Below, piece by piece: positions 27,393 through 59,140 of a stretch of 64,000 nt of DNA. Under the pieces are notes generated by a model that saw only the letters and a list, made by a program, of their open reading frames with translations, was not told where the DNA came from and did not search any database. Position 1 is the stretch's first letter. Each line of letters begins with the position of its first letter. Made by a program: the position numbers and the translations under genes. Source of the DNA: Acidobacteriota bacterium. GTDB lineage: Bacteria; Acidobacteriota; UBA6911; RPQK01; JAJDTT01. The stretch is from contig OZ253580.1 of assembly GCA_965263035.1 (NCBI GenBank), positions 1,376,001 to 1,440,000 of the forward strand. The letters run 5' to 3'.

Positions 27393-29857
27393 CTGCCCTA
27401 TACCCACAAATAGTGCTGGACAAACAAGAATGCCTGTCGTAGTCTCCACGACATGGCAGTTCAGAACCAGATCAAGCGCACCTTGAGCCGAGAGTTGGAT
27501 CGTTTGCACGCCGTGATGAGGCGGGAGAAGTTCGCCCACCGGACGGCGCTGGCGGACCGGGTCTGCTCGGAGTTTGGATTTCACGATGCCCGAGGGCGGG
27601 CGCAACGGAGCGGCTGCCTGAAGGCGCTCCGGGAGCTGGAGGCGGGCGGACGGATTCGTCTGCCGACGCCGCGACGGCGGGTGAAACATTGCGGGCCCCG
27701 AGGACTGGGCCGTGCGGTGCCGGAGCCGGTCGGGGTGCCCGAGACGGTGGACGGCGTGCGGGAGCTGGAGTTGATCGCGGTGGAGACGGGTCCGCAACGA
27801 GCGCTCTGGAACGAGTTGATGGCGCGAGAGCATCCACGGGGCGCGGGGCCGTTGGTGGGTGCTCAACTACGCTATCTGGTGGGCTCGGCGCACGGCTGGC
27901 TGGGGGGCTTGGGGTTCGGGGCGGCGGCGTTGCGGTTGCGGGACCGGGACCGCTGGATCGGATGGGATGAGGAACAACGCCGGGCGCACCTGCACCGGGT
28001 GGTGGGGCTGAGCCGGTTTCTGATCCGTCCGTCAGTGAGGTGTCGTAATCTGGCCTCCCGGGTGCTGGGGGAGGTGTTGCGGCGGCTGGGTCCGGAGTTC
28101 CAGGCGCGCTACGGCTACCGTCCCTGGCTGGTGGAGACCTTCGTGGAGACGGCTCGCCACGATGGGGCCAGTTTGCGCGCCACGAACTGGAGGGTTCTGG
28201 GGCAGACGCAGGGTCGAGGCCGGCAAGATCGGGCGCACCGGGGTGCGGAGACGAGCAAGGCGATCTATGGGTATGAGTTGTGCCGGGATTGGCGTCGGCG
28301 GTTGGGGGTGGGACCGGCGCCGAGGCGGGGAGTGGAACCGATGTCGGAGGGCGAGGGACTGGAGGGAGCGGGCTGGGCTCAGCAGGAGTTGGGCGGGGCG
28401 CCGCTGGGAGACCGGCGCTTGAGTCGGCGACTGGTGGAGAGTGCGCACCGTCAGGCGCAGGAGCCGGGGCGGGCGTTCACGGGAGTGGCGCGGGGCGATC
28501 CGGCGGCGGTCAAGGGATACTACCGGCTGATCGACCAGCCGGAAGCCTCGGCGGTGACGGTGTCCAACATCCTGGCCCCGCACCGGGAGCGGACCCGGCA
28601 GCGGATGCAGGGGCAGCGGACGGTGCTGTGCATCCAGGACGGGAGCGATCTGAACTTCACGCGGCACGGCCGGTGTGAGGGACTGGGGGTGATCGGGCGC
28701 AACCAGACGGGAGCGACGGCGCGGGGACTGCATCTGCACGCGACGCTGGTGGTGAGTGAGACGGGGCTGCCGCTGGGGGTGTTGCGGGCGAAGCTGGACG
28801 CGCCGAAGCCGGGACCGGTGGCCACGCGGAAAAAGAAGAAGACGTATCGCTGGATCGAGGGACTTCGGGACTGCGCCGAGGTGTCGCGGTCCCTCGACGG
28901 GGTGCGGGTGGTCAGCGTGGTGGACCGGGAGGCGGATTTTTTCGCACTGTTCGCCGAGCAACGAGCGTCTCCGGAGGTGGAGTTGCTGGTGCGTGCGAAG
29001 CAGGATCGGGTGCTGAAGCGGAAGACCCGGGCGAAGGCGGCCGGGAAAAGCGGGGATCCGGACCAGGAGCAGAAGCGGAAGCTGTTCGGGCGCCTGCGAT
29101 CGGCGCCGGTGCGGGCCCGGATGCTGCTGGAGGTGAAGCGTCAGAGTGCGCGGATCAAGGCCAGCAAGCAGGCGGCCCGCCCGCGGCGGCTGGCGCGGGT
29201 GGCACGGATGGAACTGCGCTACGAGACCCTGACGATTCCGGCGCCGCGCGGGAACCCAACCGGCATCCCGTCGCTGAGACTGTCGGTGGTGCACGCGCGG
29301 GAGGTCGCGCCGCCGGCGCAGGGGAAGCGCCTGGAATGGTTCCTGCTCACCACCCTGCCGGTGACCGATGTCGAGACGGCGCAGCAACTGCTGAGATGGT
29401 ATGCCCTGCGCTGGCGGGTGGAGGATTATTTCCGGGTGCTCAAGACCGGATGCCGGGTGCAACAGCTCCAGCACCAAACCGCCGAACGTCTGAAACGGGC
29501 CATCGCCATGCACGCCGTCATCGCCTGGCGGATCATGCTGATGACGCTGTTGGGGCGAGAGGACCCGGATCTGCCGGCGCAGTTGCTGTTTTCCGATCTG
29601 GAAATCCGGGTCCTGGGGGCGTTTGCCGCGTCGCGACGATACCCACCGCCGGAAGACCTGGGGGCGGCCGTGCTCGTGCTGGCCCGCCTGGGAGGATATC
29701 TGGCTCGTAAACACGACCCCCCACCCGGGCATCAACTGCTGTGGCAGGGCTACGTCACGCTTTACGGCATGTGTCTGGGCTTCGCTTTACGAGAAGAAAC
29801 ATGAACGAAACCAGACCCAGGCTAATGTGCCCTGTGCAATATGTGGGTAAAGGGCAG
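27393..29857 (+). mobile_element. IS4-family (IS50/Tn5-like) insertion sequence, copy 1
   Basis: TIRs CTGCCCTATACCCACAAAT / ATATGTGGGTAAAGGGCAG; 8-bp TSD GGCTAGCT at 27385-27392 and 29858-29865. Confidence 0.95.
27453..29804 (+). CDS. Transposase: DUF4338 (DruA-like) N-terminal domain plus Tn5-like DDE transposase
   Basis: Tn5-like motifs GDRRL, IQDGSDL, DREADF, Y..RW.VE.YF..LK, LARLGG. N-terminal RD.WIGW, SRFLI, NLASRVL, LVETFV, GRGRQD. Confidence 0.92.
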   Translation: MAVQNQIKRTLSRELDRLHAVMRREKFAHRTALADRVCSEFGFHDARGRAQRSGCLKALRELEAGGRIRLPTPRRRVKHCGPRGLGRAVPEPVGVPETVDGVRELELIAVETGPQRALWNELMAREHPRGAGPLVGAQLRYLVGSAHGWLGGLGFGAAALRLRDRDRWIGWDEEQRRAHLHRVVGLSRFLIRPSVRCRNLASRVLGEVLRRLGPEFQARYGYRPWLVETFVETARHDGASLRATNWRVLGQTQGRGRQDRAHRGAETSKAIYGYELCRDWRRRLGVGPAPRRGVEPMSEGEGLEGAGWAQQELGGAPLGDRRLSRRLVESAHRQAQEPGRAFTGVARGDPAAVKGYYRLIDQPEASAVTVSNILAPHRERTRQRMQGQRTVLCIQDGSDLNFTRHGRCEGLGVIGRNQTGATARGLHLHATLVVSETGLPLGVLRAKLDAPKPGPVATRKKKKTYRWIEGLRDCAEVSRSLDGVRVVSVVDREADFFALFAEQRASPEVELLVRAKQDRVLKRKTRAKAAGKSGDPDQEQKRKLFGRLRSAPVRARMLLEVKRQSARIKASKQAARPRRLARVARMELRYETLTIPAPRGNPTGIPSLRLSVVHAREVAPPAQGKRLEWFLLTTLPVTDVETAQQLLRWYALRWRVEDYFRVLKTGCRVQQLQHQTAERLKRAIAMHAVIAWRIMLMTLLGREDPDLPAQLLFSDLEIRVLGAFAASRRYPPPEDLGAAVLVLARLGGYLARKHDPPPGHQLLWQGYVTLYGMCLGFALREET

Positions 29858-45550: not shown

Positions 45551-48012
45551 CTGCTCTATACCCACAAATAGTGCTGGACAAACAAGAATGCCTGTCGTAG
45601 TCTTCACGACATGGTAGTTCAGAACCAGATCAAGCGCACCTTGAGCCGAGAGTTGGATCGTTTGCACGCCGTGATGAGGCGGGAGAAGTTCGCCCACCGG
45701 ACGGCGCTGGCGGACCGGGTCTGCTCGGAGTTTGGATTTCACGATGCCCGAGGGCGGGCGCAACGGAGCGGCTGCCTGAAGGCGCTCCGGGAGCTGGAGG
45801 CGGGCGGACGGATTCGTCTGCCGACGCCGCGACGGCGGGTGAAACATTGCGGGCCCCGAGGACTGGGCCGTGCGGTGCCGGAGCCGGTGGAAGTGCCCGA
45901 GACGGTGGACGGCGTGCGGGAGCTGGAGTTGATTCTGGTGGAGACGGGTCCGCAACGAGCGCTCTGGAACGAGTTGATGGCGCGAGAGCATCCACGGGGC
46001 GCGGGGCCGTTGGTGGGTGCTCAACTACGCTATCTGGTGGGCTCGGCCCACGGCTGGCTGGGGGGCTTGGGGTTCGGGGCGGCGGCGTTGCGGTTGCGGG
46101 ACCGGGACCGCTGGATCGGATGGGATGAGGAACAACGCCGGGCGCACCTGCACCGGGTGGTGGGGCTGAGCCGGTTTCTGATCCGTCCGTCAGTGAGGTG
46201 TCGTAATCTGGCCTCCCGGGTGCTGGGGGAGGTGTTGCGGCGGCTGGGTCCGGAGTTCCAGGCGCGCTACGGCTACCGTCCCTGGCTGGTGGAGACCTTC
46301 GTGGAGACGGCTCGCCACGATGGGGCCAGTTTGCGCGCCACGAACTGGAGGGTTCTGGGGAAGACGCAGGGTCGAGGCCGGCAAGATCGGGCGCACCGGG
46401 GTGCGGAGACGAGCAAGGCGATCTATGGGTATGAGTTGTGCCGGGATTGGCGTCGGCGGTTGGGGGTGGGACCGGCGCCGAGGCGGGGAGTGGAACCGAT
46501 GTCGGAGGGCGAGGGACTGGAGGGAGAGGGCTGGGCTCAGCAGGAGTTGGGCGGGGCGCCGCTGGGAGACCGGCGCTTGAGTCGGCGACTGGTGGAGAGT
46601 GCGCACCGTCAGGCGCAGGAGCCGGGGCGGGCGTTCACGGGAGTGGCGCGGGGCGATCCGGCGGCGGTCAAGGGATACTACCGGCTGATCGACCAGCCGG
46701 AAGCCTCGGCGGTGACGGTGTCCAACATCCTGGCCCCGCACCGGGAGCGGACCCGGCAGCGGATGCAGGGGCAGCGGACGGTGCTGTGCATCCAGGACGG
46801 GAGCGATCTGAACTTCACGCGGCACGGCCGGTGTGAGGGACTGGGGGTGATCGGGCGCAACCAGACGGGAGCGACGGCGCGGGGACTGCATCTGCACGCG
46901 ACGCTGGTGGTGAGTGAGACGGGGCTGCCGCTGGGGGTGTTGCGGGCGAAGCTGGACGCGCCGAAGCCGGGACCGGTGGCCACGCGGAAAAAGAAGAAGA
47001 CGTATCGCTGGATCGAGGGACTTCGGGACTGCGCCGAGGTGTCGCGGTCCCTCGACGGGGTGCGGGTGGTCAGCGTGGTGGACCGGGAGGCGGATTTTTT
47101 CGCACTGTTCGCCGAGCAACGAGCGTCTCCGGAGGTGGAGTTGCTGGTGCGTGCGAAGCAGGATCGGGTGCTGAAGAGGAAGACCCCGGCGAAGGCGGCC
47201 GGGAAAAGCGCGGATCCGGACCCGGAGCAGAAGCGGAAGCTGTTCGGGCGCCTGCGATCGGCGCCGGTGCGGGCCCGGATGCTGCTGGAGGTGAAGCGTC
47301 AGAGTGCGCGGATCAAGGCCAGCAAGCAGGCGGCCCGCCCGCGGCGGCTGGCGCGGGTGGCTCGGATGGAACTGCGCTACGAGACCCTGACGATTCCGGC
47401 GCCGCGCGGGAACCCAACCGGCATCCCGTCGCTGAGACTGTCGGTGGTGCACGCGCGGGAGGTCGCGCCGCCGGCGCAGGGGAAGCGCCTGGAATGGTTC
47501 CTGCTCACCACCCTGCCGGTGACCGATGTCGAGACGGCGCAGCAACTGCTGAGATGGTATGCGCTGCGCTGGCGGGTGGAGGATTATTTCCGGGTGCTCA
47601 AGACCGGATGCCGGGTACAACAGCTCCAGCACCAAACCGCCGAACGTCTGAAACGGGCCATCGCCATGCACGCCGTCATCGCCTGGCGGATCATGCTGAT
47701 GACGCTGTTGGGGCGAGAGGACCCGGACCTGCCGGCGCAATTGTTGTTCTCGGATCTGGAAATTCGGGTCCTGGGGGCGTTTGCCGCGTCGCGAGGATTC
47801 CCAGCGCCGGAAGACCTGGGGGCGGCCGTGCTCGTGCTGGCCCGCCTGGGAGGATATCTGGCTCGTAAACACGACTCCCCACCTGGGCATCAACTGATGT
47901 GGCAGGGCTACGTCACGCTCTACGGCATGTGTCTGGGCTTCGCTTTACGAGAAGAAACATGAATGAAACCGGACGGCTAATTTGCCCTGTGCAATATGTG
48001 GGTAAAGGGCAG
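45551..48012 (+). mobile_element. IS4-family insertion sequence, copy 2
   Basis: Same TIRs as copy 1 (one substitution); 8-bp TSD TCCTAGCC at 45543-45550 and 48013-48020. Confidence 0.95.
45611..47962 (+). CDS. Transposase: DUF4338 plus Tn5-like DDE, copy 2
   Basis: 783 aa, about a dozen substitutions versus copy 1, intact. Confidence 0.92.
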   Translation: MVVQNQIKRTLSRELDRLHAVMRREKFAHRTALADRVCSEFGFHDARGRAQRSGCLKALRELEAGGRIRLPTPRRRVKHCGPRGLGRAVPEPVEVPETVDGVRELELILVETGPQRALWNELMAREHPRGAGPLVGAQLRYLVGSAHGWLGGLGFGAAALRLRDRDRWIGWDEEQRRAHLHRVVGLSRFLIRPSVRCRNLASRVLGEVLRRLGPEFQARYGYRPWLVETFVETARHDGASLRATNWRVLGKTQGRGRQDRAHRGAETSKAIYGYELCRDWRRRLGVGPAPRRGVEPMSEGEGLEGEGWAQQELGGAPLGDRRLSRRLVESAHRQAQEPGRAFTGVARGDPAAVKGYYRLIDQPEASAVTVSNILAPHRERTRQRMQGQRTVLCIQDGSDLNFTRHGRCEGLGVIGRNQTGATARGLHLHATLVVSETGLPLGVLRAKLDAPKPGPVATRKKKKTYRWIEGLRDCAEVSRSLDGVRVVSVVDREADFFALFAEQRASPEVELLVRAKQDRVLKRKTPAKAAGKSADPDPEQKRKLFGRLRSAPVRARMLLEVKRQSARIKASKQAARPRRLARVARMELRYETLTIPAPRGNPTGIPSLRLSVVHAREVAPPAQGKRLEWFLLTTLPVTDVETAQQLLRWYALRWRVEDYFRVLKTGCRVQQLQHQTAERLKRAIAMHAVIAWRIMLMTLLGREDPDLPAQLLFSDLEIRVLGAFAASRGFPAPEDLGAAVLVLARLGGYLARKHDSPPGHQLMWQGYVTLYGMCLGFALREET

Positions 48013-48014
48013 TC

Positions 48015-48893
48015 CTAGCCACCCGATCTCGATTTTCGGCCCAGGTGAAGACATGCGATCCCGGCCGAGAGGGTTCGGTGGTGGATCTCGCGGAACCCCG
48101 CCCTCTCCAGCAACCGGTCCAGATCCTCGGGCGCGAGGAACTGTCGCACCGACCGGGAGAGATAGTCGTAGGCTGGTCCGTGTCCCGAGATCCAACCGCC
48201 GAGTCGAGGCAGGATCCGCACGAAATAGAACAGGTACAGCGACCTGAACAGCGGCAAAGTGGGGAGCGTAAACTCCAGGATGGCCAACACGCCTCGGGGT
48301 CGGAGCACCCGATGCATTTCGGCCAGACCCTGGCGGTAGCTCTCCAGATTCCTCAATCCGAACGCGATGCTGACGGCGTCGAAGGACCGGTCCGGAAAGG
48401 GGAGTCTCAGCGCGTCCCCTTCGGCGAACGCAACACGACGGCCGTTTGCGGAACGGGACGCCTTCTTCTTACCCAAAACCAGCATGGGATGAGAGAAGTC
48501 ACACGCCACCACCGAACCCACATTGGAGAGCTCCAGGGCCAGGTCCCCGGTTCCCGTGCACAGGTCCAATATCCGCGGTTCCGACGGCAGCCGGCGTTCC
48601 AGCTCGCGCCTCGTCACCCGCCTCCAGCGCCGGTCCACGGACAGGGAGAGAAGACGGTTGGCCCGGTCGTATCGGGGGGCAATGGCGCCGAACATCCGGC
48701 GGATCCGCCCCGATTCCTTATCAGTCCGTGGTGAAAGTCCCGCGTAGCACCGAGACCGGGGCTGCGCCCGCCGGACCAGGCGCGGTGAGGGAGCATATTC
48801 GACCCTATGTGACCGAGGCGCAACGCAGTCCGCGCACGATGCAGACCCGGTCGAATGCCGCGACGACTTTTGCCACGGGCTATTATCCTCCAT
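48015..48893 (-). CDS. ubiE: Demethylmenaquinone/ubiquinone methyltransferase with a 55-aa MITE-derived insertion
   Basis: MF..IA.RYD..N..LS, LDLCTGTGD, GDALRLPF, AFGLRN, RVLRP.G, AY.YL..S. Confidence 0.93.
   Translation of the reverse strand: MEDNSPWQKSSRHSTGSASCADCVAPRSHRVEYAPSPRLVRRAQPRSRCYAGLSPRTDKESGRIRRMFGAIAPRYDRANRLLSLSVDRRWRRVTRRELERRLPSEPRILDLCTGTGDLALELSNVGSVVACDFSHPMLVLGKKKASRSANGRRVAFAEGDALRLPFPDRSFDAVSIAFGLRNLESYRQGLAEMHRVLRPRGVLAILEFTLPTLPLFRSLYLFYFVRILPRLGGWISGHGPAYDYLSRSVRQFLAPEDLDRLLERAGFREIHHRTLSAGIACLHLGRKSRSGG
48722..48882 (-). mobile_element. MITE family B, full copy inserted in frame in ubiE/menG
   Basis: 161 bp, homologous to 58041-58203; TSD ATAA on the minus strand (TTAT at 48718-48721 and 48883-48886). 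Confidence 0.9.
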
Positions 48894-48933
48894 TTGAATC
48901 CCCGGAACCCGCGACGGCAATCCCCGGCGACCG

Positions 48934-50025
48934 CTATTTCACTTGCTTCACTTGGTCCCAGGCCCGCGCCAGGTCCTGGTCTGGAATGTCGTCCCGGATC
49001 CGGGTGATCCCGATCGCCGCCAGCAACACGACGACCGTACGTTGATTCCGGCGTTTCTTGTCCCGCTTCATGGCCTCCACGACGCGACCCGTGGGCACCG
49101 TATCGATCGTTGGCAGAGGCCCGATCTCCCGGATCGACTGCACTGCCCGGTCCCGTGACTCCCGTGAAAGACCCGTGCGCCAATGCGAGAGATGAGCAGC
49201 AGCCATCATTCCGTAGGCTACCGCTTCCCCGTGGGTCACCCCCTGAAATCGGACGGCGGATTCCAGTCCGTGACCGAAGGTATGTCCCAGGTTCAGTATT
49301 CGCCGCAGATCCGATTCGCGTTCGTCCTGGGCGGTGACCTGCGCCTTGATCTGGCAGCAGCGCTGGATCAACTGCTGCATCACCGGGGCCTTCCGGGCCT
49401 GGATCTCTTCCAGCGACGCGTTCAGCCAATCGAAGAATTCGGCGTCCCGGATGAGGCCGTACTTGAACACTTCATAGAGTCCGGACTGATACTCTCGTTG
49501 AGGCAAGGAGAGAAGGGTTTCCGGGTCGATGCAGACCAGGCTCGGCTGCCAGAAGGAACCGACCATGTTCTTGGCCAGACCATGATTGACTCCGGTCTTG
49601 CCTCCAACTGAACTGTCCACCTGAGCCACCATCGTCGTCGGGATCTGGATATACGGAATTCCCCGCATGAAGGTGGCAGCGGCGAATCCCGCGATGTCTC
49701 CGGTCACGCCGCCACCCAGGGCCAACAGGGCCGACGAGCGATCCGCGCCGCCGGTCACGAGCTGTCCGTAGATCCGCTCGACGGTTCGGAGTGTCTTGTG
49801 GGATTCTCCGTCCGGTATCAGAATCTCCGATACCCGGAACCCGAAGTCCGCGAGACCCTGCATGAGCCGCTCGCCGTAGAGTTCGTGGACCGTGGGATTG
49901 GAGACCAGGAACAGCCTCCGGGTCGTCTCGCGGTCGCTCAGCAGCCTCGGGACCTCGGCCAGGAGACCGGGACCGATCAGGATGTCATAGCTGCGGCCGG
50001 GAAGGCTGACCTGAACCGTCTTCAC
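48934..50025 (-). CDS. aroB: 3-dehydroquinate synthase
   Basis: GGGVTGD, QVDSSVGGKTG, LNLGHTFGH, HGEAV, DKK. Confidence 0.97.
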   Translation of the reverse strand: MKTVQVSLPGRSYDILIGPGLLAEVPRLLSDRETTRRLFLVSNPTVHELYGERLMQGLADFGFRVSEILIPDGESHKTLRTVERIYGQLVTGGADRSSALLALGGGVTGDIAGFAAATFMRGIPYIQIPTTMVAQVDSSVGGKTGVNHGLAKNMVGSFWQPSLVCIDPETLLSLPQREYQSGLYEVFKYGLIRDAEFFDWLNASLEEIQARKAPVMQQLIQRCCQIKAQVTAQDERESDLRRILNLGHTFGHGLESAVRFQGVTHGEAVAYGMMAAAHLSHWRTGLSRESRDRAVQSIREIGPLPTIDTVPTGRVVEAMKRDKKRRNQRTVVVLLAAIGITRIRDDIPDQDLARAWDQVKQVK

Positions 50026-50112
50026 CGGGTTCCTTTCCTGCTGTACGCCGCTTTGGGAAATCGCGTCGGCATCGATGCGGCTGGTGCGATCTTGGAAAAA
50101 ACCGGTCCCGGG

Positions 50113-51096
50113 CTAACCCAGCACGCCTTCCAGAGGACTGCTCGCCGTGGCGTAGAGCTTGCGGGGAATCCGCCCCGCCTTATAGGCCAGACGACCCGAC
50201 TCCACGGCCAGTTTCATGCTCCGGGCCATGGACACCGGATCCTTGGCGCCGGCAATCCCGGTGTTCATGAGGACTCCGTCGATCCCCAGCTCCATGGCCA
50301 GCGTGGCGTCGGAAGCGGTCCCGACACCGGCGTCGACGATGACGGGAACCGAGGCGAACTCCAGGATGATGCGGATATTGTTGGGGTTCTGGATGCCGAG
50401 GCCCGAACCGATGGGGGCTCCCAACGGCATCACCGCCGCCGCTCCCGCATCCTCCAGCCGCTTGCAGACGATGGGGTCGTCGTTGGTGTAGGGGAGCACC
50501 ACGAATCCTTCCTTGACCAGCACGTGCGTGGCTTCCAACAAGGCTTCGTTGTCGGGGAACAGCGTGCGCTCGTCTCCGATCACCTCCAGCTTGACCAGAT
50601 TCGACAGGCCCGCCTCCCGCCCCAGCCGGGCGTATCGAATCGCTTCGGCCGCCGTGTAGCAGCCGGCGGTGTTGGGCAACAGCCGGTAGCGGTTGGGGTC
50701 GATGTGGTCCAGGAGGGATTCTCGAGTCTTGTCGGTCAGATTGACGCGCCGCACGGCCACCGTGACCAACTCGGCCCCGCTGGCCTCCAAGGCCTGCTCC
50801 ATCTGGCCGAAGGTCGCGTATTTCCCCGTTCCCACCAGCAAACGGGAGTGATACTCACGTCCGGCTATGGTCAGCGTATCTTCCACGGCCCCTCCTCCCA
50901 CGAAATGAACGATTTCGATCCGATCGCCACTTTGGATTTCCTGCTCGGCCCACCGGGCACGGCGGACGATCCGCTCATTGATTTCGACCGCGACCCGACC
51001 CCCCTCAAGCTCCAGATCCTGAACCAGATCCGCCACACTGCGGCCCAATTCCACCCGGTGCTGCAGACCATTCAAAACGACTTGGATCTTGCCCAT
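50113..51096 (-). CDS. thiG: ThiS-ThiG fusion (sulfur carrier plus thiazole synthase)
   Basis: ThiS ([14 protein letters not shown]) in frame with ThiG ([34 protein letters not shown]). Confidence 0.95.
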
Positions 51097-51297
51097 GGGT
51101 CCATCGTTTTCGAGCCCAGTCTACTACGACGCCGCGCCCGTCTGCCAGCCGGACGGAGCCCTGACCCGCGGGGCATCGGCCCATTCCGGGACCATCGTCC
51201 GGCTCTAGCGGACCCAGGGTCGGAGCCACTCAACTTCCGGTCGAATTCCTCATCGAATGTTGGCGAGCGCCATCAACCTTGACGGGGTTCTGCACCA

Positions 51298-51463
51298 CTA
51301 GAGTCTGCGCGGTAGAAATGATCGTAGCGAGAAAGTGGGGAATCGAGGCCAGATTTTCTCGATTTGGAGGTGCATAGTTGTTCTATTCGCCGAGAAATCG
51401 AGGAAATATGGACCGATTCTACCGCTTTCGCAGTAGATCGATTTCTGCGGCGCAGGCTCCTAG
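51298..51463 (-). mobile_element. MITE family A, copy 3 (inverted)
   Basis: Reverse complement of copies 1 and 2; flanks CTA/CTAG. Confidence 0.92.
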
Positions 51464-51482
51464 CCTGATTGCCGAAGGGTTC

Positions 51483-52162
51483 CTATTGCCGGAAGAGTTC
51501 GTATGCCTCAGGGAGGAAAATCCGGGCGGTCATGATCTCCGTCATGGGGATGACGACCCGAAAATCTCCATACGCCAATCCGGATGACCCCTCAAGGGAC
51601 CTCCATATCATAGGCGCATAGTTGGTCTTGACTACCAACTCCTGTTTGTCTTTATCGCGGTAGCCGCTAGCCATCGGGACGATCTTAATATCGCCCTCAC
51701 CCTGGCTTTCGATTCCGCTCTTGAGGGGGAAGCCAATGTATACCTTTCTGCTCTTCAGCGAGATCTCAACCAGCCTTTGATTCTCGATGGATTCCGCGAC
51801 GAGCAACTCAATGAGGTCACCGCCTCTTTCTGCTACTCGTCAAGCGGCCTGTTCTTCGCTGTAGAAACGGTTGCCCACAAACGGCAGCACGAAGCCCAAC
51901 AGGGCACTCGGCAGTATTGCCGTCGAGGAGTAGGGGATTGATCCGTACGACGTCCATGCCGGGTCTATCCAAGACCAATAATAGTGCAGAGGAAGAACCA
52001 TCAAGTGTCCAATCCCCGCCAGAATGCCGCCGAGACCGCGGCCCGGAAGAAGACATGGTAACCGGAATCACGCAGAGCGCCGTAGCGGGTGAAGTAGAGA
52101 TGGGTCAGGAACCAGTATCCACCCAGAGCCGAGACGAGAAACAGACCAAGACCCAAGGGCAA
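51483..52162 (-). pseudogene. Degraded membrane-protein gene in a lower-GC islet
   Basis: Segments LGGYWFLTHLYFTRY..RDSGYHVFF, SALLGFVLPF..NRFY.EEQAA(TGA)RVAE and GDLIELL...LKSRKVYIG...PMASGYR lie in different frames. Confidence 0.7.
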
Positions 52163-52192
52163 CAGTTCCTGACAGATTGATGGCGTTGATCC

Positions 52193-52390
52193 TTACTGGC
52201 GTTTTTCCGGAGATGCACCGGACGAATCCCTTCCAAAGTCAAGTTTCGCCATTTTTTCGATGACGGCGCGCGCCCGCTTGCTGCGGAGCAGATCATCTGC
52301 TTTGACGTACAGCGCGCCCTTTGGCGTCACGTACACCGGAGGACGTTCCGGGTCCGTTGACGACGGTGCCTTTGGCGAAGTCTTCGTCAT
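52193..52390 (-). CDS. Small hypothetical protein (65 aa)
   Basis: AAGGAG RBS before ATG; lies upstream of the pseudogene. Confidence 0.55.
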   Translation of the reverse strand: MTKTSPKAPSSTDPERPPVYVTPKGALYVKADDLLRSKRARAVIEKMAKLDFGRDSSGASPEKRQ

Positions 52391-52622
52391 GATGTCTCCT
52401 TACTCCATAACGTCCGAAACTCATCGTACATGATCAAGGTGCTTTCGGACATGGAGCGGACCCGGCCAGCCCTCAAGATGGGCTGAAGTTCGAGCCTGCC
52501 CGGTTCTTCCTTTCATCGGAAGGGAGACCGTGTCGCTTGTAATTCACGGCGACCCGACATTAGGCGTCGCCGGGAGCGCATCCCCATATGCGGTGCGAAG
52601 CGGGGACCCTTGCCCCGAACCG

Positions 52623-53549
52623 TCAACGCAACAGATAGGCCAAGGCCAGGCCGACCTGGGCCGTCAGCGTCAGGAGATACATCTGCCGCCAACTGGGGTG
52701 GTTCTCCCAGTCCATGCTCCCTTCCCATTCCTGCGAAGACCGGACCAGCAGGAGGATGATCCAACCGCCCCAACCGGCGAGAATCAGCCCCAGGCCCGCC
52801 AGCAGCGCCGGTTGTCCGGACAGCAGCCCGAAGACCGCGCCCGGGACGAGGGCCAGAAATGGCAGTACAAAGAAAGGCGCGATGATCCGGATCGACCGGT
52901 GCACGCCATAGATAACGGGAAGCGTCCGGCAGCCGCCCCGGCGGTCCCCCTCCACGTCGGAGAAGTCCTTCGTGGTGACGGCCCCCAGGAAATAGACTCC
53001 CAGGATCGCACCGAGCACCCAAGGCTCCGGCTGCAGCACATGCTTCACGGTGGACCAACCGGCCACCGGGAGCAGCGTTCCCCGGACGACGGCGATGGTC
53101 AGGTTGGCCCAGATGCCTCGAGACTTGGTCCGGAATGGAGGCGCCGAGTAGAGACAGGTTCCCAGGGCGCCTCCGAGAACGACGAGAAAGCACTGGTAAT
53201 TGATCCAGATGGCCAGCAGCAGGGCGACCACCAGGAAGACCAGACTGAGGCCCCAGGCTTCCGGCATGGAGATGCGGCCCGATGGCAGCATGCGGTGAGG
53301 CTTGTTGATACGATCGATCTCCAGGTCGCAGATCTGGTTGAGGCCGTTGGAAAAGGCGTTCAGCGCGGCCGCCAGAACGGCTCCGGCCAAGATCCGCAGA
53401 ATGATCTCCTCACCCCCCGGGCTCCAGTCGGATACTCCCTTCGGATCCACCGAGAGCCCCATGAGTGCGCCGCAGACCATTCCCAGCGCCGGCACCAGCA
53501 GGGTGAAGGGGCGAATGAACCGGAAGTAACGGACGATTGGTTCAGGCAT
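52623..53549 (-). CDS. UbiA-superfamily prenyltransferase, homogentisate prenyltransferase-like motifs
   Basis: RPFT, GLNQICDLEIDRINKP, YSAPPFR.K, IAVVRG, TKDFSDVEGD; about 8 TM helices. Confidence 0.88.
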   Translation of the reverse strand: MPEPIVRYFRFIRPFTLLVPALGMVCGALMGLSVDPKGVSDWSPGGEEIILRILAGAVLAAALNAFSNGLNQICDLEIDRINKPHRMLPSGRISMPEAWGLSLVFLVVALLLAIWINYQCFLVVLGGALGTCLYSAPPFRTKSRGIWANLTIAVVRGTLLPVAGWSTVKHVLQPEPWVLGAILGVYFLGAVTTKDFSDVEGDRRGGCRTLPVIYGVHRSIRIIAPFFVLPFLALVPGAVFGLLSGQPALLAGLGLILAGWGGWIILLLVRSSQEWEGSMDWENHPSWRQMYLLTLTAQVGLALAYLLR

Positions 53550-53642
53550 GACGCGGCGGGTGCTTTACCTCGAAGCCCGGAAGGCACGGGCAACCGGCAG
53601 CGATTCCGAGTCGTCGGGAATCCATCGGCGCCGATCCATTTC

Positions 53643-54974
53643 TCAAGGGGTCGCCGGGGAACGGAAAAGGAACCAGATTCCCCCGCTGGCGCAGGCTCCC
53701 GCCAACGTATTGTACAAGTTGAGCACCTGGTGCCGGCCCGGGCCGTCCCGCCCGTCGCCGGCCAGCCAAGACTCGACTCCATTCCCCGCAATGGCTCCGG
53801 CCGCCAACGCCGGCAGTGCCGACGCAGGAATCCAGCTCCACAGGACCGGAACCGACGAAACCGCCAGGGCCGCAACCGATCCGGCCAGCGTGCCCGCAAG
53901 TGAAACGGCGCCGGGAGTCCCCACCGGAACCGGCTTGAAGGTGCGGAGATCCCTGGGAGTCCGTCCCAACCACTGCCCGATCTCGGTGGCGACCGTGTCC
54001 AGGGTGGCGGCGGCCAGGGCGCCGGTGTAGGCCACTCGCGCCACCGTGCTGTCGGCCCAGAAAAACAGCAGCGCCAGGATGCCCGCGACCAGACCCTTGG
54101 ACAGAACGTTGGCCACGCCTCTCCGTCCGAGATTCTCTTCCGCGACTCCCAGAGCCTCCTTCCGTCCCTTCCCCAACCAGGTGCTGAACCCGCCCAGGAA
54201 GAAAAAGAGGCAGAGGACGACATAGCCCGCGGGTCCCGCCGAGAGATAGACGCCGATCCCCAGGACCAGCCCGGCGGCGGCGCCGCGCCAGGAGATCCAA
54301 CCCACCATCAGACTGAGGCCGGCCAGGAGCAAGTTGATTCCAACCGCGTGGGACCAGGGCGCGGCCAGCTCGGGAATCAGGTCGGGCGCGCCCAGGAGCA
54401 GCGGGAAGATCCCGGCGCCGACCACCACGATGACCAGATTGTCGTCCACCAGGTTCGGCAACGACTCGGCCAAGGCGCAGACCAGGGAACCGAAAAGACA
54501 GAAGGCTGCCAGCGTGAGACTGGAAATTCCGTCCGATTGCGGCAGGTTCCAGACCAGGAGTGTCCAGGATCCCGCCGTCGCCGCCAGGAAGAAGCCAAGG
54601 GAGCCGCCCAGGCTCTTCTCCCGATTGTAGGGGAGTGGGACCCAGGGCCACCGCCGTCCCGCCAAGTTGGAAACCGAGTCTCCCACCGCCAGAACGGCCC
54701 AGACGGCCGCCGCGACGTGAAGGCGCTCGCGAAACAGGAGAAGCAGCATCATGATTCCGAAGGCGTAGTAGAGCTTGCCGGCGGAGTATCCCGCCTCCCG
54801 TTCCGAACCCCGCGTCGTCACCCGGATCCAACGAGGGGAAATGAACGCGGCGTAGAAAAACGAAAAGAGGCTCAGGAGAAGGATCAGCCCGTAGTCCACG
54901 TAGGGAAGGAGAAAGGCGAAGGCCAGGGGCAGCACATGTTCCAGCTGCCTCAGGTCCTCTCTTCCGTCCTTCAT
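53643..54974 (-). CDS. Fused prenol kinase (phytol/dolichol kinase-like) and DUF92 (VTE6-like) membrane protein
   Basis: N-half RQLEH, G.LYY, GD....AGR, LPYN..KS..GS, ES...DDNL. C-half RKEALGVAE...GRRG, DT.A.EIG, TFK.VP.GT.GAVSL.GTLAG. ATGA overlap with the upstream gene. Confidence 0.88.
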   Translation of the reverse strand: MKDGREDLRQLEHVLPLAFAFLLPYVDYGLILLLSLFSFFYAAFISPRWIRVTTRGSEREAGYSAGKLYYAFGIMMLLLLFRERLHVAAAVWAVLAVGDSVSNLAGRRWPWVPLPYNREKSLGGSLGFFLAATAGSWTLLVWNLPQSDGISSLTLAAFCLFGSLVCALAESLPNLVDDNLVIVVVGAGIFPLLLGAPDLIPELAAPWSHAVGINLLLAGLSLMVGWISWRGAAAGLVLGIGVYLSAGPAGYVVLCLFFFLGGFSTWLGKGRKEALGVAEENLGRRGVANVLSKGLVAGILALLFFWADSTVARVAYTGALAAATLDTVATEIGQWLGRTPRDLRTFKPVPVGTPGAVSLAGTLAGSVAALAVSSVPVLWSWIPASALPALAAGAIAGNGVESWLAGDGRDGPGRHQVLNLYNTLAGACASGGIWFLFRSPATP

Positions 54975-55894
54975 GATCCCATCCAACGGTTCGTGCTGCT
55001 CAGGCCCTCCTCCAGGGAGCGGGCCGAGTAGCCCAGATGGGAGCGGGCCTTGCCCGAGGAAAACCGCCAGTTCTGGAGAAAGAACTCGGCCGTGGAGGGG
55101 ACCAGCAACGGCGAGGTCCCCCGCAGTCGCGCGCTCCAGTCCTCCAACCGGGCGGCGGCGCGAAACAGCCCGTCCGGGAGACCCAGGGGAACGATCGGCA
55201 CGTCCGCAACCCTTCGGAAGGTCGCATACAGATCCCGGAGCGTCCGGTTTTCGCCTCCCAGGACGAAATCCTCTCCGGGGTCGGCATCCAGGCATCGAAC
55301 CAGAGCCTCGGCGACGTCGTCCACGTAGACGAAGTTCCAGCAGGGGGCCCCGCGGCCGGGCAGTGCCGCCACACGCAGCTTCTTCCACCGCCGAAGGAGA
55401 CGCACCAGCAGGTTCCCCTCCGTCATCGGCCCGGGGCCGTACACGACGGTGGGAAAGACCGTGTTCATGGGAAGCCGTTCCTTCCACCGGCCGGCCAGTC
55501 GAAATGCCTCGAATTTGCTCTGGTCGTACCCGTGGAAGAATCGGGTCCTGTCGGGAATTCGTTCCTCGGTATGGATCCCGTCGCCGCTGGGGCCAAAGAT
55601 GGTGAACGAGGAGACATGGACCATCCTGGCAACCCGGTGGCGCCGAGCCAGTTCCAGGACGTTCCTCAAACCGTCCACGTTGACCCGGAGGAAGGGGCCG
55701 GGCCGGGCCTGGACCAGGGCGGCCAGATGAAACACGGCCTCAGCGTCCCGGAAGCTGGGCTCCAAGGTCCGGATGCGGGTCACGTCCTGGCCCCGGGATC
55801 GCGAAGCCACGGTCACGTCGTGCCCTTGCTCCCTTAGCCTTCGCACCAGGACACTCCCCAGGAAGCCTGTCCCGCCCGTGACCAGGCACCTCAT
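54971..55894 (-). CDS. Extended SDR (NAD-dependent epimerase family), farnesol dehydrogenase/HpnA-like
   Basis: TGGTGFLG, VFHLAALV, VNVDGLRNVLE, SSF, YDQSK, GPG.MTEGN, VDDV, GEN, LGY..RSLEEGL. Confidence 0.85.
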   Translation of the reverse strand: MRCLVTGGTGFLGSVLVRRLREQGHDVTVASRSRGQDVTRIRTLEPSFRDAEAVFHLAALVQARPGPFLRVNVDGLRNVLELARRHRVARMVHVSSFTIFGPSGDGIHTEERIPDRTRFFHGYDQSKFEAFRLAGRWKERLPMNTVFPTVVYGPGPMTEGNLLVRLLRRWKKLRVAALPGRGAPCWNFVYVDDVAEALVRCLDADPGEDFVLGGENRTLRDLYATFRRVADVPIVPLGLPDGLFRAAARLEDWSARLRGTSPLLVPSTAEFFLQNWRFSSGKARSHLGYSARSLEEGLSSTNRWMGS

Positions 55895-57873
55895 GGCGAT
55901 TCGAATGACCAGGCGCGGCCGTCCAGGGGCTCAGGATCTTCGACCTGAAACAACCGGTACAGCGTCGGCGCCACGTCCATGATGTGAGGATTCTCCGTAA
56001 CGATGGTGCGATTTGAGACCGCGAAACCCGCGGTGTCCGAAAAATCGGAAGCACAGTGGTCGCCGCTCCATTTCCTGAGGTTGGCGACGAGGACGTGCTC
56101 GGGCACCGCACCCAGGGCCGTCTGCCACGAAGTCCGGTAACCGGAGCGGAAGCTGAGCTGGATGTCTCCGGCATGCTCGATCTCTTCACCGGTGTAGATC
56201 TCGTCCCTGAAATAAGCGTTCTGCAGCACCGGTTCTCCGGTTTCCGGGTCCCGATACTCGAGAATATCGCGAGAGATTTCCCGGACCAGATCCATATAGC
56301 CGCGGCCGGGTTCGACGATTCCCTGACCCTCCCGCCCCTTCAGGTTCACGTAGATATGGCCCAGGCCCAGGGCGTAGGCTCGAGTCCGGCTCCAGTCCAC
56401 GTTGGGGAAGAAGCTTCCGCCGCGATAGACCTGCTCCATCCGCTTCAGATCAGTGTCGGCCCGCACGCCTTTGAGAACCACGAAACCATTCTCCAGGAGC
56501 CAGGTGTTGGTGTTGAATTCCTTGCGCCAGGAGTGAAACCCATGATCGGAAACGACCAGCAGCAGGTCCTGGGGATCCAGGTGCTCCAGGACTCGGGAAA
56601 GGATGGAGTCCATTTTCCGGTAGACGTTCAACAGGAATCTGCCGTAGGCCTGTGCGGCCTCCGGGTCGTAACGGGGATGATGGGGGTCGATGAAGCGGTA
56701 GAACATGTGGGCGGCGCTGTCGGTGGCCGTGAAAACGGCCGTGTACAGGGACGCCTTACCTCGTTCCAGCTCGTGCATCAGGAGCCGCTCCAGATGGTTC
56801 ATGTTGCGGAAGAGGTCCTCCAGAAAGACCTGCTCGTCGATCTGCTCCTCGTTCAGGCCCCAGGTCTCGTGGACCCAGCCGAGAGTCTTGAACGGGAAGA
56901 GTTGGGCGGCCAGGTCTTCCGAGTAACCGGCCGGACTCGATAGAGGCAGGATGGGATCGGCCGGATCGAGGCTGATGGGCATCAGGTAGAGCCTCACTTC
57001 GGGAAATGTCTCCAGTACGTAGAAGCGGCTGATTCCGCGGATCTTGACCAGGGGCCCCGCGGAGAAGGCGAAGCGGAACCAGTCGCTCCACTGTCCCTCG
57101 TCGACCTCCTCTTCCTGATCCTGGAGCCTCAGCGTCAGGGAGGTCGACTGCGGGTCCAACTCCACCGACAGCGGGATCGTCAGCCGGACCAGGTCCTCTT
57201 CTCTGGGGTCGGCGGGTCCGTCGATCTGCGCTTGAAAACGGCCGTCCTGCTCTTCCAGGCGGATCACCCGGCCGCCGAACTCCGTATCCTGCAGGTCCCA
57301 GCGGCTCACGTCGGTGGAGAGGTAGAAGTAGGTCCCCCAGGTCCCCCGGACGTCGGGCACGCCCAGCCCCGACAGCGTGGTCCCATGGTCCAGGGACCGG
57401 GCCGGGAACTCCAGGGGAAGCCGCAGATTGGCGGTGACGATGCCGGATCGATCCAGTTGCTCCCAAAAGGGGACGCCCTTGCGGTTGTTGGTCAATCGGG
57501 CTCCGCGGATGGGGATGGTCTTGAACAGGAAGCGAGGCTTTTCCACCGTCACCAGCCCGATGTCGGGCATGTAGGTGACCGGGTCCCGCCGGAGAAAGTC
57601 GAAGATTCCGTGCCGGCCTGGATTGAGTCCGGTGGCGAAACTGGCCCAGGCCACGGGGGACGCGGGAGGGTTGGTGGTTCCCAGGGTCGACAGGGTCCCC
57701 TGCTCCCCCAGGCGGCGGATAGTGGGAAGCTCTTCGATCCATCGATCCACCAGGTCGGGATCCACACCGTCGAAGCCCAGGACCACGACCTTGAACCCTG
57801 TACGCCTGGGGTCAGGCGTACAGAAGGATCCCAGAAGGACGATCAGAATGAGTCCCAGCCGACTCCAGGTCAT
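55891..57873 (-). CDS. Alkaline phosphatase superfamily (phosphodiesterase/NPP-type) exported protein
   Basis: VLGFDG, SPVAW.SF.TG.NPG.HGIFDF, SDHGF, SGDH; N-terminal signal with a possible lipobox Cys. Confidence 0.88.
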   Translation of the reverse strand: MTWSRLGLILIVLLGSFCTPDPRRTGFKVVVLGFDGVDPDLVDRWIEELPTIRRLGEQGTLSTLGTTNPPASPVAWASFATGLNPGRHGIFDFLRRDPVTYMPDIGLVTVEKPRFLFKTIPIRGARLTNNRKGVPFWEQLDRSGIVTANLRLPLEFPARSLDHGTTLSGLGVPDVRGTWGTYFYLSTDVSRWDLQDTEFGGRVIRLEEQDGRFQAQIDGPADPREEDLVRLTIPLSVELDPQSTSLTLRLQDQEEEVDEGQWSDWFRFAFSAGPLVKIRGISRFYVLETFPEVRLYLMPISLDPADPILPLSSPAGYSEDLAAQLFPFKTLGWVHETWGLNEEQIDEQVFLEDLFRNMNHLERLLMHELERGKASLYTAVFTATDSAAHMFYRFIDPHHPRYDPEAAQAYGRFLLNVYRKMDSILSRVLEHLDPQDLLLVVSDHGFHSWRKEFNTNTWLLENGFVVLKGVRADTDLKRMEQVYRGGSFFPNVDWSRTRAYALGLGHIYVNLKGREGQGIVEPGRGYMDLVREISRDILEYRDPETGEPVLQNAYFRDEIYTGEEIEHAGDIQLSFRSGYRTSWQTALGAVPEHVLVANLRKWSGDHCASDFSDTAGFAVSNRTIVTENPHIMDVAPTLYRLFQVEDPEPLDGRAWSFESP

Positions 57874-58040
57874 GATCCCTCCCGCGTCCGTTCTTTGGGC
57901 GGAGTGGTCCCGGCTTGCATATCCGCCGTCCAGTCTACTACGACCCCGCGAATCTCAGACACAGGGAACGAACCACCGGCGCAGGGACCACGGCAGGTTC
58001 ACGACTTCGCCTTTCGTCCCCAGAATGGGTCCTCGGTTAA

Positions 58041-58203
58041 CAGCCCGTGGCAAAAGTCGTCACGGCATTCGACCGTCCCTGCATCGTGCGCGGACTGCGT
58101 TGCGAACTCGGTCACATACTCCCGGTAGGCTCCCTCATTGCGCCTTGTCCGGCGGCGGGCGCAGGAATGGTCTCGGTGCTCGCGGGACTTTCACCACGGA
58201 CTG
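58041..58203 (+). mobile_element. MITE family B, full intergenic copy
   Basis: 163 bp; imperfect TIR CAGCCCGTGGCAAAAGTC / GACTTTCACCACGGACTG; TSD TTAA on both sides. Confidence 0.92.
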
Positions 58204-58334
58204 TTAAACGCCCATGTGGACGAGTGTCGAGACAGCATATTCCAAGACTCGCCGCGGCCCGATATCGGGTCCGTTCGTTGACACCATCCGGGCCCTTCAC
58301 TAAGATGCATTCTCCGCAAGCGGGGGAGCCAAGT

Positions 58335-58832
58335 GTGGAGCAAATCGTCTTTTACGTGTTTGCAGCCGTAGCCGTCGGCTCCGCTCTCATGGTGATCCTC
58401 CAGCAGCGCGCCGTCTACAGCGCATTCTCCCTGATCGTCTGCTTCGGCGCTTTGGCCGTCCTCTACTTTCAGTTGGGAGCCGCCCTCGTCGCCGCTCTGC
58501 AGGTCATCGTTTACGCCGGGGCCATCATGGTCCTGTTCCTGTTCGTGATCATGCTTCTGGATCCGAAGTCGGAGATTTTCGGTCCCGACCGGTTCAAGAA
58601 GACGGCCTTGGCCGCATTGCCCGCGGCCGCCTTTCTGGCGTTTGTCCTGCTTCGCGTCTTCCCGGCGTGGAGTCCCCGCGGATCAGGCGACCCCCTCGGA
58701 TCAGGCGAAGGTCCGAAGCGGATCGCCCAGCTTCTCTTCCGGGACTATCTGCTGCCCTTCGAGGTCACCTCCATCCTGATTCTGGTGGCCATTCTGGGCG
58801 CCGTCGTCCTGGTCAAGCATAGTCCCGATTGA
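58335..58832 (+). CDS. nuoJ: NADH-quinone oxidoreductase subunit J
   Basis: QVIVYAGAIMVLFLFVIMLL, YLLPFE; GTG start. Confidence 0.96.
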   Translation: MEQIVFYVFAAVAVGSALMVILQQRAVYSAFSLIVCFGALAVLYFQLGAALVAALQVIVYAGAIMVLFLFVIMLLDPKSEIFGPDRFKKTALAALPAAAFLAFVLLRVFPAWSPRGSGDPLGSGEGPKRIAQLLFRDYLLPFEVTSILILVAILGAVVLVKHSPD

Positions 58833-59140
58833 TGGGTATGGTCCCTGCCACTCATTACCTGGCGCTGGGCGCGGTTCTCTTCGTCATCGGCGTCGCCGGC
58901 TTCATCGTCAGACGCAACGTCATAACCATGTTCATGTCGGTGGAATTGATGCTCAACGCCGTCAACCTCACGTTTCTGGCCTACGCGCGGACGTGGAGCC
59001 AGGTGGACGCCCACATCTTCGTCTTCTTCGTCATGACCGTGGCCGCGGCGGAGGCGGCGGTGGGTCTGGCGCTGATCCTGGGTCTCGACCGGCACTCCCA
59101 GACCCTGGACATCGACTCCGCCAACAAGCTTCAGGGCTGA
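58832..59140 (+). CDS. nuoK: NADH-quinone oxidoreductase subunit K
   Basis: RRN, ELMLNA.N, VAAAEAAVGLAL. Confidence 0.97.
   Translation: MGMVPATHYLALGAVLFVIGVAGFIVRRNVITMFMSVELMLNAVNLTFLAYARTWSQVDAHIFVFFVMTVAAAEAAVGLALILGLDRHSQTLDIDSANKLQG

Follow-up and report, generated by a model that had tools for sequence, protein, structure and literature searches.

A minus-strand operon of an Acidobacteriota bacterium encoding a putative fused prenol and prenyl-phosphate kinase and a UbiA prenyltransferase

Described systems and layout of the operon

Plants and cyanobacteria are the only organisms for which genes of prenol kinases and prenyl-phosphate kinases are known (PMC9782597). In the phytol salvage of these organisms VTE5 acts before VTE6, and the two feed VTE2/HPT, ChlG and MenA. 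Enzymes of apparently the same three superfamilies, in the same logical order, are encoded by an operon at positions 52623-57873 of the window, i.e. the whole 64,000-nucleotide stretch of contig OZ253580.1 (positions 1,376,001 to 1,440,000) of an Acidobacteriota bacterium that was analysed here. Based on sequence comparison we lean towards a pathway in which a fused kinase protein would make a prenol diphosphate and a UbiA prenyltransferase would pass the prenyl chain to an acceptor. In contrast to phytol salvage, the two putative kinases form one polypeptide, and their partners are an extended short-chain dehydrogenase/reductase (SDR) and an exported NPP-type enzyme. Furthermore, the host genome was found to have no reaction centre, no 4-HPPD above cut-off and no tocopherol cyclase, and the UbiA protein scores below all cut-offs. 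A literature search, the reach of which did not include supplementary tables, returned no paper on this bacterial operon.

The architecture of the fused kinase is not new, since an archaeal form was described by Makarova et al. (2015; PMC5898192). In that paper, proteins such as Mbar_A3310 (arCOG02245) carry an N-terminal Sec59-like domain followed by DUF92, DUF92 is related to pfam01148, and the proteins are predicted to perform a kinase step of isoprenoid metabolism, which is the role proposed for the bacterial protein as well. According to the same paper the archaeal genes adjoin uppS, whereas the bacterial ones adjoin UbiA genes or are fused with them.

Two further groups of systems were compared. 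The DGGGPS of Methanocaldococcus jannaschii (6m31) and chlorophyll a synthase (ChlG, 9sau) share the Asp-rich loops and a RINKPxRxLPSG stretch with the UbiA protein, which differs from them in scoring below the cut-offs of their families and in having NQ rather than ND; neither GGGPS nor a photosynthetic apparatus was found in the genome. The polyprenyl-phosphoribose systems comprise the mycobacterial one (Rv3806c/Rv3807c/DprE1-2/GT-C) and the three-component system of Citrobacter, for which Kelly et al. (PMC11127046) describe a phosphatase and a GT-C transferase alongside the UbiA-fold synthase and an epimerase of the SDR type in the cytoplasm. A UbiA-fold enzyme, a phosphatase and an SDR also occur here, with a GT-C in some relatives, and fusions of a phosphatase with a UbiA-fold protein are found both in those systems and among the relatives of the operon. 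The fused phosphatase there is a cytoplasmic HAD domain, whereas here it is of NPP type and probably on the opposite membrane face. The present operon also has two kinase domains, no MATE gene was seen, and the UbiA protein reaches 13.7 bits against a cut-off of 207 on the corresponding model.

Four minus-strand open reading frames lie head to tail in the order phosphoesterase, SDR, kinase fusion, UbiA. This order and the common orientation, as given in a preliminary description made from the sequence, were confirmed by the open reading frame coordinates and by Pfam. The features are as follows.

55891-57873, minus strand: NPP-type phosphoesterase gene (660 aa; Pfam Phosphodiest PF01663, 111.2 bits, cut-off 23)
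54971-55894, minus strand: extended SDR gene (307 aa; Epimerase PF01370, 115 bits)
53643-54974, minus strand: fused kinase candidate gene (443 aa; DUF92 PF01940, 128.2 bits)
54360-54974, minus strand: Sec59/VTE5-like N-terminal domain (CTP_transf_1 superfamily), putative prenol kinase (residues 1-205)
53763-54335, minus strand: DUF92 domain, VTE6-like, putative prenyl-phosphate kinase (residues 214-404)
53550-53642, minus strand: spacer between the fused kinase gene and the UbiA gene (93 nt)
52623-53549, minus strand: UbiA prenyltransferase gene (308 aa; PF01040, 154.5 bits)

An ATGA overlap at 54974-54971, seen directly in the sequence, joins the SDR and kinase-fusion genes, and an overlap of the phosphoesterase and SDR genes at 55894-55891 was deduced from the open reading frame coordinates and the ATG start. 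Because the kinase fusion and UbiA stand 93 nt apart, the earlier wording that three of the four genes are coupled by ATGA is exact. The sole content of the spacer is a 24-codon frame ending with TAA. A scan for promoters and terminators around the operon gave counts close to the shuffled expectation, and nothing was found in positions 47000-59000 with Rfam at gathering thresholds. Between the UbiA gene and orf107 the window has 0.8 kb of lower G+C (0.56). The host genome was assembled into one contig of 6.2 Mb with a completeness of 97%, and the relatives of its proteins carry the labels Candidatus Aminicenantes or Acidobacteriota.

The fused kinase and the UbiA prenyltransferase

The association of the two genes was examined in 301 genomes drawn evenly from Acidobacteriota. 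The kinase was detected in 117 and UbiA in 97; both were present in 95, and UbiA occurred alone in two. A kinase match alone was seen in 22 genomes, in 10 of which it covered the DUF92 half only. Where both genes were on one contig (67 genomes), they lay within 5 kb of each other in 66. These tallies include two unpublished genomes (G024 and G152), without which co-occurrence is 93/95 and adjacency 64/65. Since related genomes are not independent samples, the counts are to be read as patterns and not as statistics. In the 80 named loci that the kinase profile retrieved, UbiA was within 6 kb of the kinase in 62, and 61 of these had both genes on the same strand, a recurrence beyond chance. The phosphoesterase was nearby in 2/80 loci; the SDR is taken up below.

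Thirteen long relatives of UbiA were scanned for additional domains. Two were DUF92+UbiA (P0293 and P0366), three were UbiA+Phosphodiest and one was FA_desaturase+UbiA. The DUF92-UbiA fusions are the strongest evidence for the kinase product being the substrate of the transferase. Together with the co-occurrence (95/97) and the adjacency (66/67), they make activation of a prenol to its diphosphate for use by UbiA, as had been proposed, appear the best reading of these sequences. In several genomes (G059, G278, G276, G286 and the unpublished G024) the kinase and UbiA matches fall in possibly continuous frames of 770-1100 aa, which hints at three-domain proteins composed of Sec59-like, DUF92 and UbiA parts.

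The fused protein matches PF01940 at residues 214-404 well above the cut-off of 27.5 bits and belongs to the DUF92 family; on TIGR00297 it scored 116.1 bits, under the cut-off of 205.85. A membrane domain of about 205 residues stands ahead of DUF92. About 100 full-length relatives (400-500 aa) have the same two domains, and wherever they are named the label is Acidobacteriota. In an alignment of 24 relatives, G98, D99, K120, E170, D177, D178 and N179 were invariant in the first half, and R285, D326, T327 and E331 in the second. PF01940 was matched by 24/24 of the aligned relatives, and PF01148 (CTP_transf_1) by the N-terminal half of 2/24, the best case being P0049 (residues 34-154, 27.8 bits, cut-off 24). 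Relatives of the first half also exist as stand-alone proteins, one of which (P0110) was named dolichol kinase by JGI. An AlphaFold2 (AF2) model of the kinase fusion had a pLDDT of 88.3. Foldseek searches of the PDB with this model found no structure within E 0.001, CdsA (4q2g) ranking 40th; a profile of the kinase family gave no match to PDB sequences at E up to 1, and the ESM Atlas returned weak leads only (0.91-0.92) for the N-terminal half. Both kinase activities of the fused protein are putative.

The UbiA protein falls under every NCBIfam cut-off. It scored 122.7 bits on the ChlG model NF005742 (cut-off 313), 114.7 on the BchG model TIGR01476 (212.3), 85.2 and 110.7 on the DGGGPS models NF009521 (296) and NF009523 (PRK12884; 269), and 106 on the HPT model NF009525 (226), where the match spans residues 6-257. 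Seven further members of the family reached 51.6-124.8 bits on the HPT model, none of them attaining 226. In all eight members tested the top models were ChlG, PRK12884, BchG and HPT, all under cut-off, and PRK12882 was among the top matches. The assignment to the HPT family that had been suggested earlier is not borne out by these scores, as ChlG and DGGGPS-like models give scores at least as high. On the decaprenyl-phosphate phosphoribosyltransferase model NF008978, the cut-off of which was passed in 1/14 genomes of a control search, the window protein had an E value of 0.055. The nearest solved relatives were the M. jannaschii DGGGPS (6m31, 78.9 bits) and chlorophyll a synthase (9sau, 77.6 bits), both at about 1e-21, and no phosphoribosyltransferase chain was among its PDB matches at E up to 1.

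The NQxxDxxxD form is probably a mark of HPT and HST. Both this motif and KDxxDxxGD, which had been reported for the window UbiA, are indeed present in the sequence. Among 86 full-length relatives the former occurs in 69 and the latter in 81; where the family has NQ, the DGGGPS and ChlG references have ND. Since alignment showed KDxxDxxGD, like the RINKPxRxLPSG stretch, in the M. jannaschii DGGGPS as well, KDxxDxxGD is no mark of HPT, contrary to the preliminary description.

A total of 775 proteins among 8000 scored candidates of a 90%-identity database were relatives of UbiA, and the family comprises at least 146 clusters at 50% identity (E up to 1e-30). A quick tree, from which HPT/HST, cyanobacterial ChlG, archaeal DGGGPS and MenA were absent, separated 45 rows of the family by a branch (SH-aLRT 82) from two plasmid BchG proteins, a DGGGPS-like protein of Acaryochloris, a UbiA protein of Haloferax and three paralogues from the host genome. 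The other UbiA genes of the genome code for a heme O synthase, an EboC-like protein and an enzyme resembling MqnP, and paralogues thus supply the heme O and MqnP-type functions. By its scores under all curated cut-offs the protein is a member of an unclassified family of the UbiA superfamily. Its nearest relatives use a prenyl diphosphate as the chain donor, and the chain transferred is probably about C20.

Phosphoesterase, SDR and transcript coverage

The phosphoesterase has an N-terminal hydrophobic helix and belongs to the alkaline-phosphatase superfamily. Its AF2 model (pLDDT 90.1) matched ENPP1, Xanthomonas NPP, ENPP6/7 and PafA in Foldseek at E values of about 1e-11, the top two with probability 1.00; its sequence gave no PDB match at E up to 0.1. 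In 21 relatives D35, D385, H389, D443, H444 and H606 were invariant and T66 nearly so. The conserved Asp and His residues probably act as metal ligands, and T66 as the nucleophile. Family score, fold and conserved residues place the enzyme in the NPP type. According to the secondary structure of the AF2 model, the catalytic core carries an all-beta insertion of about 220 residues (approximately 94-310).

A connection of the phosphoesterase with this type of UbiA had been proposed and is supported by the three clusters of UbiA-Phosphodiest fusions (P0237, P0340 and P0372). Members of two of them were labelled by NCBI as metagenome-assembled genomes of Deltaproteobacteria and Planctomycetota; P0340 is unlabelled. 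Residues 28-659 of the window enzyme aligned with residues 302-942 of P0237 (46% identity; 33% with P0340), the UbiA Pfam match of P0237 (22-237) lying ahead of the phosphoesterase part. As the alignment starts at residue 28, the fused domain begins at the end of the N-terminal hydrophobic segment of the window enzyme. Solved UbiA proteins have nine helices, and both Asp-rich loops are cytoplasmic. With the C-terminus of UbiA predicted to be outside, the phosphoesterase would act on the outer face. A prediction of a complex between UbiA and the phosphoesterase gave a score of 0.00 and no verdict.

Adjacent pairs of NPP paralogues, about 38% identical to the window enzyme, occur without the kinase-UbiA module in many Acidobacteriota (e.g. 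G227:C58, G133:C13 and G029:C54). In loci of Polarisedimenticolia a different gene of the alkaline-phosphatase superfamily, PhoY-like with 54 bits, follows UbiA (L031:10339-11652, and in the same place in L020); this is a second, independent pairing of UbiA with a phosphoesterase.

The SDR contains the motifs GxxGxxG and YxxxK and is cytoplasmic. In addition to Epimerase (115 bits) it matched 3Beta_HSD in Pfam (64.8 bits). The best NCBIfam model was HpnA TIGR03466 with 127.2 bits, under the cut-off of 367.65, followed by OleD (77.9) and sterol-type models, and the best solved relative was 3wj7, a "putative oxidoreductase" (95.6 bits). Among the extended SDRs the protein lies with the 3-beta-HSD/HpnA-like members; the ESM Atlas returned generic epimerase/3-beta-HSD clusters only. 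The stretch past the second strand is arginine-rich and lacks acidic residues, and the sequence suggests NADPH as the cofactor.

Most of the operon was covered by contigs of RNA libraries from two studies (runs X1, X2, X4 and X5). Record 3 of X1 (53261-55066) crosses the 93-nt spacer between kinase and UbiA, and jointly with record 13 of X2 (54842-56200) it crosses all three gene junctions. A 168-nt element with inverted ends was noted at 58038-58205, between the operon and nuoJ, and at 48722-48885. The genome has 161 copies of at least 150 nt (median identity 91%), RNA-library depth rises to thousands at the element, and it looks like a miniature inverted-repeat transposable element. Some RNA-library contigs join 58037 straight to 58206, and therefore strains without this copy exist. 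The window further contains two frames of equal length (783 aa) at 27453-29804 and 45611-47962, the latter with a DruA-like N-terminal domain and a Tn5-type DDE transposase.

Genes of candidate pathways were sought in the host genome. No match was found to PcrB/GGGPS (PF01884), for which the control search gave hits in archaea and Bacillus, or to the type I and II reaction centres (PF00223 and PF00124), for which both controls were positive in Synechococcus; the latter result agrees with the earlier view that the host is non-photosynthetic. The best match to 4-HPPD (TIGR01263) had 22.5 bits against a cut-off of 277, and that to the geranylgeranyl reductase family 127.6 bits, under the cut-off of 158.8. 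There was no match to tocopherol cyclase (PF14249), a weak negative since no control genome passed that cut-off. A genuine ubiE/menG gene lies 3.7 kb downstream of the operon. The downstream genes aroB and ubiE were considered as pathway members and rejected: both pass housekeeping equivalog cut-offs and stay in place in a genus lacking the module.

Proposed pathway, alternatives and meaning

In the pathway that we favour, the Sec59/VTE5-like domain would phosphorylate a free prenol at the cytoplasmic face of the membrane, and the DUF92 (VTE6-like) domain would supply the second phosphate. The prenyl diphosphate may be handed straight to the adjoining UbiA protein, which would alkylate an acceptor either by O-prenylation, as in DGGGPS and ChlG, or by C-prenylation, as in HPT. 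The SDR could be a cytoplasmic reductase that converts an aldehyde to the alcohol, or it could prepare the acceptor. At the outer face of the inner membrane the NPP-type enzyme might free the alcohol from phosphate esters for re-entry, or alternatively trim a phosphate head group off a flipped product. What the analysis shows directly are the domain families, the gene order, the co-occurrence, the fusions and the lack of partner genes for tocopherol and archaeal lipids; the two kinase activities, the acceptor, the chain length and the parts given to the SDR and the phosphoesterase are inferred. Prenols from outside may also be scavenged.

A number of observations weigh against this pathway. 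Enzyme activity has been demonstrated for no bacterial member. The N-terminal half of the window kinase has no Pfam match at E up to 1, and in VIA-align wide its model reached Z 6.2 with CarS and Z 5.5 with CdsA, values in the noise range for helical proteins. An SDR orthologue was within 2.5 kb in just 48/80 loci; G033 has the order phosphoesterase-kinase-UbiA with no SDR, and in loci of the Vicinamibacterales type an NDP-sugar-type SDR is coupled to the kinase, with a dTDP-glucose 4,6-dehydratase (RmlB) upstream. GT-C (PMT_2) genes were in or near the module in 5/80 loci, and sugar-nucleotide genes flank it in several classes. RNA-library contigs may hold DNA and are no proof of a single transcript. 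The phosphoesterase family is present in 191/301 genomes (a count including the unpublished G024, G049 and G152), often as tandem pairs without the module. In a sister genus (g2) of the same family, a 67%-identical phosphoesterase stands beside thiSG-aroB-ubiE with no SDR, kinase or UbiA. Locus L104 of this genus (G250:C22:802000-820000) has phosphoesterase-thiSG-aroB-ubiE in the same order as window positions 48015-57873. SDR, kinase and UbiA thus behave as an insertion or deletion cassette, because they are absent from L104 while the flanks keep their order. The evidence against a strict link of the phosphoesterase is equal in weight to that for one, and it is taken to be a recurrent but dispensable partner.

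By analogy with the mycobacterial decaprenylphosphoryl-arabinose (DPA) pathway or the three-component pentofuranose type, the operon could instead produce a lipid-linked sugar donor, the main alternative, which we consider unlikely. In that case polyprenyl phosphate would come from the Sec59-like kinase, and UbiA would attach to it a phospho-sugar taken from a diphosphate donor. After dephosphorylation by the phosphoesterase and epimerisation of the sugar by the SDR, a GT-C enzyme would carry out the transfer outside the cell. The set of components does resemble the system of PMC11127046. A PMT_2 GT-C gene lies directly between kinase and UbiA in L002 only, together with a histidine-kinase gene in L048 and L076, and nearby in L015 and L024, while in several classes the module is flanked by lptD and by genes of the RmlA/RmlB or GDP-mannose type. 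On the other hand, the score of UbiA on the phosphoribosyltransferase model is far under the cut-off, with no such chain among the PDB matches, and the DUF92 domain and the DUF92-UbiA fusions would be left without a role. There is no GT-C gene in the operon, and the genome gave no tblastn match at E 1e-5 to the GT-C proteins encoded in L002 and L048, although PMT_2 genes of other types are present elsewhere in it. The missing MATE flippase gene and the position of the phosphoesterase on the outer rather than the cytoplasmic face likewise speak against such a donor. A scheme in which the phosphoesterase turns polyprenyl (di)phosphate into the free alcohol, the SDR acts on this alcohol or its aldehyde and the kinases rebuild a glycan-carrier phosphate resembles the formation of dolichol phosphate in eukaryotes. 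The dolichol-kinase (Sec59) type of the N-terminal domain and the exported, NPP-type phosphoesterase would suit such maturation or recycling of a carrier lipid, as would the archaeal DUF92 genes beside uppS (PMC5898192). It would, however, give no role to UbiA, the tightest partner of the kinase, and the cluster is without a reductase for the alpha-isoprene unit; this scheme appears improbable.

The scores of UbiA bear on two further alternatives. In an ether lipid step of archaeal type, UbiA, acting like DGGGPS, would attach the chain of a C20 diphosphate to an oxygen of a glycerol-phosphate-type acceptor, and the outer phosphoesterase would trim the head group. DGGGPS is the best solved relative and shares RINKPxRxLPSG and KDxxDxxGD, PRK12884 and PRK12882 are among the top models in 8/8 members, and the fatty-acid-desaturase fusion points to a lipid product. 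Against this stand the lack of a PcrB/GGGPS match in a 97% complete, single-contig genome with working controls, DGGGPS scores far under cut-off, and NQ instead of ND in 69/86 members, so that we give the step a small chance of being correct. Very improbable is an alternative in which homogentisate or a different quinone head group is prenylated to give a tocopherol-like or novel quinone product. It could draw on the span of the HPT match (residues 6-257), the NQxxDxxxD motif in 69/86 members and the genuine ubiE/menG gene downstream. The HPT cut-off, however, was reached by 0/8 members, and ubiE, aroB and thiSG are housekeeping neighbours whose order is kept in the sister genus without the module. 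Moreover, prenylation for menaquinone is covered by the MqnP-like paralogue. Neither 4-HPPD over cut-off nor a match to tocopherol cyclase (the cyclase controls being silent), PcrB or a reaction centre was found in the genome, and the tocopherol-like product envisaged in the preliminary description is therefore unsupported.

In the pathway that we favour, in which the kinase product passes to UbiA, the fusion protein offers a compact bacterial candidate for the two missing kinase steps, and the module is present in about one third of the sampled Acidobacteriota genomes (95/301). Fusion of the transferase to an outward phosphoesterase suggests that a lipid is handled on both faces of the membrane, which would be an unusual arrangement. 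Membrane lipids of Acidobacteriota serve as environmental markers. It is conceivable, though with low probability, that an isoprenoid membrane lipid of ether type is made without the archaeal GGGPS in many Acidobacteriota and in some further phyla. The fused kinase would recharge a C20 alcohol, the DGGGPS-like UbiA would O-alkylate a glycerol-phosphate-type acceptor, and the outer-face NPP enzyme, at times fused to UbiA, would either cut back the head group or release the alcohol for a new round. If so, this would be a two-sided lipid cycle with no flippase for the return trip.

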